A stretch of DNA of 64,000 bases from assembly GCF_003334785.1 (NCBI RefSeq), contig NZ_QOWV01000002.1; one strand, given 5' to 3'. The stretch is from Escherichia coli. Lineage in GTDB: Bacteria > Pseudomonadota > Gammaproteobacteria > Enterobacterales > Enterobacteriaceae. The translations under genes and the position numbers were made by a program. A model generated the notes under the pieces. The model ran no database searches. It was not told the DNA's origin and saw only the letters and a list, made by a program, of their open reading frames with translations. Positions 40,294 through 40,811 of the stretch are shown piece after piece; within the stretch, counting starts at the first letter, position 1, and every line of letters begins with the position of its first letter.

Positions 40294-40491
40294 ACGGCGG
40301 AAAGGGCCGCAGTGGATAATACACTAACAGAACAATAATAACTCTCTTTTGCTTGACAAAAAGAGAGTTACTGGCGAGTATTGTCTCCGCTGAGACGCGC
40401 TTGCATTACTACGGTAATACAACCTGCTGGAAAGGCCGCGAACCGGACCAGCAACAAAAAACCGCCTGATTTTGGCGGTTTTTTGTTTTTT
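40294..40491. repeat. PAIR3 repeat copy A (~195 bp module with palindromic promoter core and terminator)
   Basis: About 80 percent identical to 40616..40811; shares the acggcggaaagggcc start, the 28-bp palindrome actctcttttgcttgacaaaaagagagt and the aacctgctggaaaggccgcgaacc...terminator end. Confidence 0.85.
40389..40491 (+). ncRNA. Candidate ~100-nt sRNA transcribed divergently from ryfA (repeat A); possible TimR-like antitoxin sRNA
   Basis: Perfect -35 TTGACA (40353-40358), 17-bp spacer, -10 GAGTAT (40376-40381); intrinsic terminator accgcc-loop-ggcggt plus T-run (40461-40491); no ORF. Confidence 0.35.
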
Positions 40492-40615
40492 AAAGGAAAG
40501 TGAATTTACATGTTTAAGTAATATCTTTTACCGGTTAGAATTTTTAATTTTGAGCAGGATTTGTTTATATTTGTCTGAATTCGGACTAATAAGCCAGGTT
40601 ATTTTATTACCGAAC

Positions 40616-40811
40616 ACGGCGGAAAGGGCCGGTGTCGATAATACGCTAAATAAACAATAATTACTCTCTTTTGCTTGACAAAAAGAGAGTTACTGGTGAG
40701 TATTGTTTTGCTGTGAAGCACCTGCGTTGCTCATGTAACACAAGTCAACCTGCTGGAAAGGCCGCGAACCAGACTAGCAATAAAAAACCGCCAAATTCGG
40801 CGGTTTTTTAT
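40616..40811. repeat. PAIR3 repeat copy B
   Basis: Second copy 322 bp downstream of copy A; central ~50 bp diverged, ends conserved. Confidence 0.85.
40710..40811 (+). ncRNA. Candidate ~100-nt sRNA (repeat B paralogue)
   Basis: TTGACA (40675-40680), 17-bp spacer, GAGTAT (40698-40703); terminator 40787-40811; body diverged from copy A. Confidence 0.3.

Follow-up and report, generated by a model that had tools for sequence, protein, structure and literature searches.

Two TimR-family antitoxin RNA genes, one probably non-cognate, at the timPR (ryfA) locus of Escherichia coli K-12-like DNA

A 64-kb stretch of Escherichia coli K-12-like DNA (RefSeq assembly GCF_003334785.1, contig NZ_QOWV01000002.1; here 'the window') contains two candidate small RNA (sRNA) units, referred to below as copy 1 and copy 2, within the sseB–ryfA–sseA region; in all likelihood both encode antitoxin sRNAs of the TimR family and belong to the timPR (ryfA) type I toxin–antitoxin locus. 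A 951-nucleotide (nt) query around the candidates matches many E. coli chromosomes between sseB and sseA at 100% identity, and timP is annotated at this locus in all E. coli RefSeq genomes so matched. The RefSeq annotation of strain MG1655 lists in the interval ryfA (b4440), timP (b4812; 41 amino acids (aa), inside ryfA) and the non-coding RNA timR (b4811). When MG1655 positions are converted to window positions (41666 minus the locus position), timR coincides with the second candidate, copy 2, and copy 1 (40388/9–40491) falls in an interval without annotation in MG1655, so that the annotation covers one of two TimR genes (Table 1). Copy 1 and ryfA are divergent genes on opposite strands whose starts lie 78 nt apart, and copy 2, 400 nt from ryfA, is divergent from a truncated second leader known as IS128.

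Table 1. Features of the timPR locus, in window positions (aa, amino acids; bp, base pairs)
Feature	Position	Strand	Basis
ryfA RNA, which is the timP messenger RNA (mRNA), 304 nt: 146-nt structured leader, TimP open reading frame and terminator	40007..40310	-	Rfam RF00126, 314.9 bits; MG1655 b4440
timP coding sequence, 41-aa small toxic inner-membrane protein; the regulated open reading frame	40039..40164	-	RefSeq b4812; NCBIfam NF040796 (toxic_TimP), 86.8 bits, cut-off 45
Predicted TimR-binding site, stem-loop 2 of the timP leader, ryfA nt 64-82, variable-region allele 'TGTTT'	40229..40247	-	19-bp helix; covariation; Salmonella papers
ryfA nt 1-12 (GCGGCCCUUUCC), 5' strand of the stem-loop 1 lower stem; target in the earlier proposal	40299..40310	-	minimum-free-energy fold
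Copy 1 promoter, TTGACA + 17 nt + GAGTAT	40353..40381	+	direct reading
Copy 1, TimR paralogue, unannotated, 'B' recognition allele (CGCUGAGACGCGCUUGC)	40388..40491	+	covariance model, 102.7 bits (training-set member)
Motif GGAAAGGCCGCG of copy 1, hairpin-2 stem end and loop	40429..40440	+	consensus fold
'IS128 RNA', probable truncated second timP leader	40442..40650	-	Rfam RF00125, 262.1 bits
Copy 2 promoter, TTGACA + 17 nt + GAGTAT	40675..40703	+	direct reading
timR (b4811), copy 2; recognition segment nt 1-19 at 40710-40728	40710..40809	+	MG1655 annotation; covariance model, 92.7 bits (training-set member)
Motif GGAAAGGCCGCG of copy 2	40755..40766	+	consensus fold

An earlier note on this DNA had described, for each unit, a promoter of the form TTGACA, 17-nt spacer and GAGTAT, an intrinsic terminator ~100 nt downstream, and the absence of an open reading frame (ORF), all of which hold. 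Promoters were read directly and terminators found by inverted-repeat search, in place of generic scans, placing the −35 and −10 elements at 40353–40358 and 40376–40381 in copy 1 (expected start 40388/40389), and at 40675–40680 and 40698–40703 in copy 2 (start 40710). The copy 1 terminator is a perfect 14-nt inverted repeat (40453–40487) and that of copy 2 a 19-nt inverted repeat of 95% complementarity (40777–40814), each bidirectional and followed by a T-run. Neither promoter was listed by a generic promoter scan of the window, because GAGTAT agrees with TATAAT at only three of six positions, and neither terminator by a generic terminator scan, because the A-tract/T-tract is taken up into the stem. 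Homologues in Citrobacter, Salmonella and Superficieibacter keep a −35 element of TTGAC(A/T), the 17-nt spacer and A2/T6 of the −10 element. There is no ATG in copy 1 and only ATG-TAA in copy 2, and the overlapping ORFs are mechanical TTG starts only, with no meaningful ORF found in either unit; a promoter, a terminator and the lack of an ORF would be expected of a ~100-nt non-coding RNA.

Relatedness to TimR is indicated by nhmmer searches with copy 2, which returned TimR matches in Salmonella, Citrobacter and Superficieibacter loci (E-values 1e-9 to 1e-12), and by a TimR covariance model, to which copy 1 and copy 2 align over their full length at 102.7 and 92.7 bits, respectively, both being members of its training set. 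Applied to the sseB locus of ~60 other enterobacterial genera and species, the same model gave no additional homologues. Rfam contains no TimR family, and searches against it give sub-threshold similarity only, to AgrB, OhsC and OrzO-P; for copy 2 (40731–40812, plus strand) the scores are 29.6 bits for AgrB (gathering threshold 40) and 28.8 bits for OhsC (gathering threshold 50), a likeness that probably stems from the terminator hairpin and not from homology.

The consensus fold of 14 distinct sequences orders the TimR RNA, from 5' to 3', into a free variable recognition segment of ~12–19 nt, hairpin 1, hairpin 2 with an invariant loop, and a Rho-independent terminator. The first 12 nt stay free and are hypervariable in sequence; compensatory changes occur in hairpin 1 (GUUGC/GCAAC versus AUUAC/GUAAU, for instance), and the hairpin 2 stem GCUGG/CCAGC is compensated in C. 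werkmanii. Between Escherichia and Superficieibacter, the hairpin-2 loop (AAAGGCCGCGAACCrGA) hardly changes, single substitutions in three lineages being the exception. The motif GGAAAGGCCGCG is conserved and mostly unpaired, with a mean unpaired probability of ~0.65.

Unrestricted full-length RNAduplex runs produced meaningless long duplexes, and interactions with the timP leader were therefore assessed by helix enumeration and windowed duplexes. Nucleotides 1–19 of copy 2 are complementary to ryfA nt 64–82, within stem-loop 2 of the leader, as an uninterrupted 19-bp helix including two G·U pairs, so that copy 2 shows the ~15–19 nt of continuous complementarity to the resident stem-loop 2 expected of a TimR. 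The duplex has a free energy of ~−36 kcal/mol, and none of 200 dinucleotide shuffles of the sRNA body, each scored by its best local duplex anywhere in the leader, was as good; shuffled sRNAs average −18.7 kcal/mol and never fall below −25.7 kcal/mol. Conservation was assessed with TimR/timP pairs from 11 lineages, located via SseB and comprising three E. coli alleles, a further E. coli variant, E. whittamii, four Citrobacter, Salmonella diarizonae and Superficieibacter. Across these, the 19 positions of the stem-loop 2 contact are 95.2% paired, with eight pairs altered on both sides (25 cells) and a covariation score reached by none of 500 column shuffles; slid registers of the same contact are only 25–50% paired.

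These results agree with what has been established in Salmonella, where TimR (formerly STnc2070) represses TimP translation by base pairing, compensatory mutants together with in vitro translation assign the contact to the TimR 5' end, and rescue is lost when the seed is mutated (PMC7667032). The Salmonella timP leader folds into four stem-loops, with the TimR site in stem-loop 2, and binding destabilises a pseudoknot between stem-loops 1 and 3 (SL1–SL3) that is essential for initiation (PMC11228461); pseudoknot control of timP has since been extended to a structural switch (PMC13000454). By analogy, nt 1–19 of copy 2 would pair with stem-loop 2 of the E. coli leader, and this pairing would destabilise the SL1–SL3 pseudoknot required by the ribosome and so block TimP translation, a sequence of steps that in E. 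coli is inferred from homology, complementarity and covariation. Expression of TimR homologues has been shown in Salmonella, Shigella, uropathogenic E. coli and avian pathogenic E. coli (APEC) (PMC7667032, PMC5333039, PMC13188913).

The proposal in the earlier note, of antitoxin-type sRNAs acting on a small toxic protein of ryfA, was thus right as to class (timR and timP are annotated, and repression is published for Salmonella) but wrong as to ORF and contact site. The regulated ORF is that of the 41-aa TimP and not the 24-aa ORF upstream of it, and the supported contact joins the TimR 5' end to stem-loop 2 and not the sRNA 3' motif to the ryfA 5' end. The toxic small membrane protein expected in the target mRNA of a type I system is identified here by the NF040796 match, its toxicity being taken from the literature. 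Protein searches with TimP returned Escherichia, Shigella and a few mislabelled entries only, with no homologues in Serratia, Rahnella or Hafnia.

The two modules represent a diverged duplication, in which a 91-nt repeat of 90% identity (ryfA leader nt 1–17 and both promoters) and a 64-nt repeat of 84% identity (the 3' half of the sRNA) recur at spacings of 322/326 nt; the diverged part between the repeats, 35–39 nt long, is the 5' part of the sRNA. The notion that two diverged copies serve differential control has to be recast accordingly, since the divergence lies in the recognition segment and the K-12 toxin mRNA has its cognate sRNA in copy 2 alone. On K-12 timP, the 5' end of copy 1 (CGCUGAGACGCGCUUGC) forms only an 11-bp helix with three G·U pairs (−25.7 kcal/mol including mismatches), short of the continuous ~15–19 nt expected of a TimR. 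The same 5' end matches perfectly, over 17 bp, the stem-loop 2 allele GCAAGCGCGUCUCAGCG ('CGCGT' type), which is carried by two single-module E. coli (L087, L088) and by EcPF15 (L005), and it forms the same 17 bp, with one G·U pair, on E. whittamii timP (L009). TimR and timP of the O157-like allele pair (L003) co-vary likewise, and in a 3x3 allele matrix cognate combinations reach −34 to −37 kcal/mol over 15–19 bp and non-cognate ones −13 to −26 kcal/mol. The recognition allele of copy 1 therefore fits the 'CGCGT' timP of most other E. coli better than the 'TGTTT' timP beside which it lies in K-12.

Copy 1 is probably transcribed in K-12, judging from its promoter and first ~56 nt, which match the sole TimR of single-module strains (identity with the L087 and L088 genes begins 24 nt or more before the start and ends around nt +56), from its perfect terminator, and from the transcription of both RyfB sRNAs in Shigella. 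Its activity on the resident timP is expected to be weak, because RyfB1 spares RyfA2 despite common flanks and because seed mutants abolish rescue in Salmonella. Copy 1 in K-12 is accordingly most likely an orphan antitoxin that controls the resident toxin weakly or not at all.

The 5' part of IS128 consists of a duplicated ryfA promoter and leader nt 1–17 (40616–40632), a sequence that recurs unchanged as promoter and leader of the intact timP(A) in strain L091, where A denotes the K-12-type allele; the remainder is AT-rich and unrelated to ryfA. On these grounds, IS128 is best read as the stump of a lost second timP, a truncated leader and not an independent functional sRNA. It is convergent with copy 1, ending at the bidirectional terminator of the latter and overlapping its 3' 50 nt on the opposite strand. 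Regulation of IS128 by copy 1 through its seed was considered and rejected, no seed complementarity being present besides a trivial 3' antisense overlap at the common terminator. The K-12 timP leader itself looks chimeric, its promoter and first nucleotides resembling the B module and its stem-loop 2 the A module. Copy 1 would accordingly be a paralogue left over from a two-module arrangement in which the second timP was lost. In each module the TimR −35 element forms the centre of a perfect 11-bp palindrome, AACTCTCTTTT-GCTTGAC-AAAAGAGAGTT (40339–40369 and 40663–40692), which lies between the divergent TimR and ryfA promoters, where the duplication junctions are also located; the E. coli A and B modules have this palindrome, the O157-like allele and other genera lack it, and it could be an operator or a recombination hotspot.

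The distribution of these alleles was counted in 5,426 complete E. coli genomes, in which copy 1-type TimR is present in 4,590. At identities of at least 99%, the K-12-like copy 1 with its own terminator occurs in 1,699 genomes, timP allele A in 1,643, TimR allele A (the copy 2 type) in 1,623, and the K-12 junction, with timP(A) immediately beside TimR(B), in 1,567 (~29%). As the junction count lies near those of allele A, the K-12 arrangement is the usual context of this allele; direct A–A single modules exist (for example, L002 and L091), and are uncommon among allele-A genomes.

Several structural variants of the locus were observed among the compared genomes. On DNA, the TimR 5' segment and its stem-loop 2 target constitute a direct repeat of 15–19 bp, and the ~150 bp between the repeats (ryfA nt 1–63 and both promoters) are missing from several genomes of E. 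coli, C. amalonaticus and S. arizonae, a loss that leaves the TimR body fused to a truncated ryfA without promoter, to which it is a true antisense (L006:2782-2870, L021:3495-3596, L023:3495-3590, L090:~890-1000). The insertion sequence ISEcB1 (IS3 family) interrupts the terminator loop of the sseA-proximal TimR in BL21(DE3) (L004:2350-3820) and in L006 (2870-4330); in BL21(DE3) the interrupted gene is the cognate copy 2, so that BL21 may lack a properly terminated cognate TimR. EcPF15 carries a second TimR (L005:1016-1102) with another 5' segment (GACGAGAUACACUUGCAG), a shorter hairpin 1 and another promoter context, for which the resident timP leader offers no complementary site, and in ETEC1748 (L092:1-880) an IS481-family transposase gene stands in the place of timP, only TimR(A), next to sseA, being kept. 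TimR also occurs at loci with neither an nhmmer nor an Rfam match to ryfA and hence without timP, in C. werkmanii (L012:3386-3481), C. braakii (L014:1149-1243) and a Superficieibacter species (L053:3374-3470); in C. werkmanii only the ryfA promoter, ~7 nt of leader and the terminator remain, beside the sseB stop. Elsewhere in the window, Rfam identifies the RNA elements GlmY, naRNA4 (derived from repetitive extragenic palindromic sequences), the iscRS stability element and SroE, all on the plus strand, at 2916–3063, 31735–31806, 32523–32632 and 53479–53570.

Taken together, both units are read as TimR-family antitoxin sRNA genes of the timPR locus, copy 2 being cognate, copy 1 most likely a non-cognate paralogue, and IS128 the truncated leader of a lost second timP, with a probability of roughly 85%. 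Several points weigh against this assignment. Copy 1 is unannotated in MG1655 and its expression in K-12 is deduced from sequence; it also keeps an imperfect duplex with K-12 stem-loop 2 (−25.7 kcal/mol) together with the conserved 3' motif, and some cross-repression of K-12 timP, through stem-loop 2 or the loop motif, may occur. The repression of TimP by TimR has been shown in Salmonella only, and deletion of timR in APEC gave little phenotype (PMC13188913).

The contact originally envisaged, in which both sRNAs act via GGAAAGGCCGCG on ryfA nt 1–12 to repress translation of the 24-aa ORF, is very improbable. The complementarity of GGAAAGGCCGCG to GCGGCCCUUUCC does exist, much as described, as 11 bp with a one-nt bulge (GGAAAGG plus CCGC of TimR, 7+4 bp around one bulged C, ~−22 kcal/mol); the motif is invariant across genera and lies mostly in a hairpin loop, and 91.7% of cells over the 11 lineages can pair. 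Yet none of these cells shows a compensatory change, and the observed values equal those of shuffles because ten of the 11 paired positions are invariant on the sRNA side. Both sides are merely conserved, and the ryfA side is held by its own stem-loop 1, in which nt 6–12 pair with GGAAAGG at nt 41–47 and nt 1–5 with nt 58–62 (nt 1–12 with nt 41–47 and 57–62 in the minimum-free-energy fold) and whose lower stem is 92% paired across lineages; the 'strong' Shine–Dalgarno sequence formerly ascribed to the 24-aa ORF is this same GGAAAGG, the 3' strand of that stem. The duplex is also marginal in strength, −22 kcal/mol being reached somewhere in the leader by ~5% of the 200 dinucleotide shuffles, and it is broken in S. 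diarizonae, where TimR has a near-identical motif (GGGAAGGCCGCG) while three of the seven core pairs are missing, as is the terminal pair in the 4-bp segment. The 24-aa ORF (40189–40263) has no protein family match, has lost its start codon in two Citrobacter loci (L015, L017) and is not a conserved coding sequence; it corresponds in position to a putative upstream ORF of the Salmonella timP leader, whose start-codon mutation has no effect on timP translation and which is thus dispensable (PMC11228461). Published compensatory mutants, moreover, put the functional contact at the TimR 5' end (PMC7667032). Alternative pairings of the motif with ryfA nt 91–97 or 123–131 were rejected as short helices unconserved in other lineages. 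Pairing of GGAAAGGCCGCG with GCGGCCCUUUCC is therefore not supported as the main mechanism and is retained as an auxiliary contact of low probability. Such a contact would have its place if TimR used two sites, an allele-specific 5' segment and an invariant loop that invades the lower stem of stem-loop 1 irrespective of allele, in which case TimP synthesis would be reduced even by copy 1, non-cognate though it is. The loop motif mimics GGAAAGG of the stem-loop 1 3' strand, destabilisation of lower stem-loop 1 abolishes Salmonella timP translation (mutant M7, PMC11228461), the ryfA 5' end provides the best local duplex of copy 1 with the K-12 leader, and the strong conservation of the loop is otherwise unexplained. 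However, the statistics and the missing covariation are those just given, a stable stem hides the target, Salmonella has a working TimR but only a weak contact of this kind, probing in Salmonella gave only minor changes outside stem-loop 2 (PMC11228461), and RyfB1 has no effect on the non-cognate RyfA2 in Shigella (PMC5333039), all of which make a two-site action unlikely.

As to why a non-cognate copy 1 persists, it is conceivable, though rather unlikely, that TimR RNAs, the orphan copy among them, act on targets besides timP, reached through the invariant loop or the variable 5' end, and that copy 1 is kept for a timP-independent role. TimR genes with intact promoter and terminator persist without timP in the C. 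werkmanii, C. braakii and Superficieibacter loci described above, phenotypes of ryfA deletion in APEC vanish when timR is also deleted, which was attributed by the authors to aberrant TimR activity without its partner (PMC13188913), and the K-12-like copy 1 is retained at an identity of at least 99% in 1,699 genomes. Set against this, no target has been identified, and none for the copy 1 seed within the window; persistence might reflect recent loss of timP, and within-species identity is expected from short divergence times. That copy 1 is instead a silent relic, untranscribed or rapidly degraded and functionless in K-12, would suit its missing annotation in MG1655, its mismatch to the resident toxin and its position next to the decayed module IS128, but appears improbable given a promoter and first ~56 nt identical to those of the sole TimR in single-module strains, a terminator that is a perfect 14-bp inverted repeat, and the transcription of both RyfB copies in S. 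dysenteriae (PMC5333039). A further conjecture starts from the presence of a non-cognate TimR beside timP in K-12 and ~29% of genomes: the hairpin-2 loop (AAAGGCCGCGAACC) might be a second functional site, serving allele-independent invasion of stem-loop 1 (as back-up repression or cross-immunity to incoming timP alleles), other targets or protein binding. Such a second loop function would, if real, account for the persistence of orphan TimR genes whether timP is present or not, and is regarded as a long shot.

Earlier publications cover the timPR system and its mechanism as well as the ryfA alleles and the sibling RyfB sRNAs, and one of the two units is annotated in MG1655; no description of a second K-12 TimR gene or of the crossed allele arrangement was found in the searchable literature. 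The second K-12 copy is an annotation-level addition to a known system and not a new kind of element, and as a discovery the two TimR units matter little. With only one of two TimR genes annotated, however, a 'timR deletion' in K-12 leaves a second TimR-family RNA directly beside timP, and, as TimR and timP recognition alleles co-vary within E. coli, the crossed K-12 arrangement offers a natural test bed for antitoxin specificity and cross-talk.

Among known systems, the closest is Salmonella TimR (STnc2070)/timP, which occupies the same locus beside sseB with the same divergent layout, a ~100-nt sRNA whose 5' segment addresses stem-loop 2, and, judging from the S. diarizonae homologue, the same 3' domain; copy 2 bears the same gene name in MG1655. 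Unlike Salmonella, K-12 has two TimR genes for one intact timP, the timP-adjacent copy being non-cognate and the cognate copy lying ~400 nt off, beside the truncated second leader. In Shigella dysenteriae, tandem modules ryfA1/ryfB1 and ryfA2/ryfB2 give ~100-nt divergent transcripts by RNA sequencing, RyfB1 lowers RyfA1 and not RyfA2, and a 5-nt 'variable region' of ryfA occurs as four alleles, TGTTT, CGCGT, CCCCC and CACCC (PMC5333039). The K-12 locus shares with this system its tandem sibling modules, its ~100-nt divergent sRNAs and its specificity via the ryfA variable region; it differs in that the second ryfA is reduced to a promoter and 17 nt (IS128), which leaves one sRNA without a cognate partner and the remaining pairs 'crossed' in position. 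More distantly, tisB-istR1, shoB-ohsC, zorO-orzO and dinQ-agrB resemble timPR in the ~18–20-nt complementarity of a trans-type sRNA to the 5' untranslated region of a small hydrophobic toxin, and a comparison with other divergent E. coli type I systems has been drawn by the TimP authors (PMC7667032); these systems share no sequence homology with timPR, and timP, in contrast to them, is controlled by a pseudoknot switch in place of RNase processing (PMC13000454).

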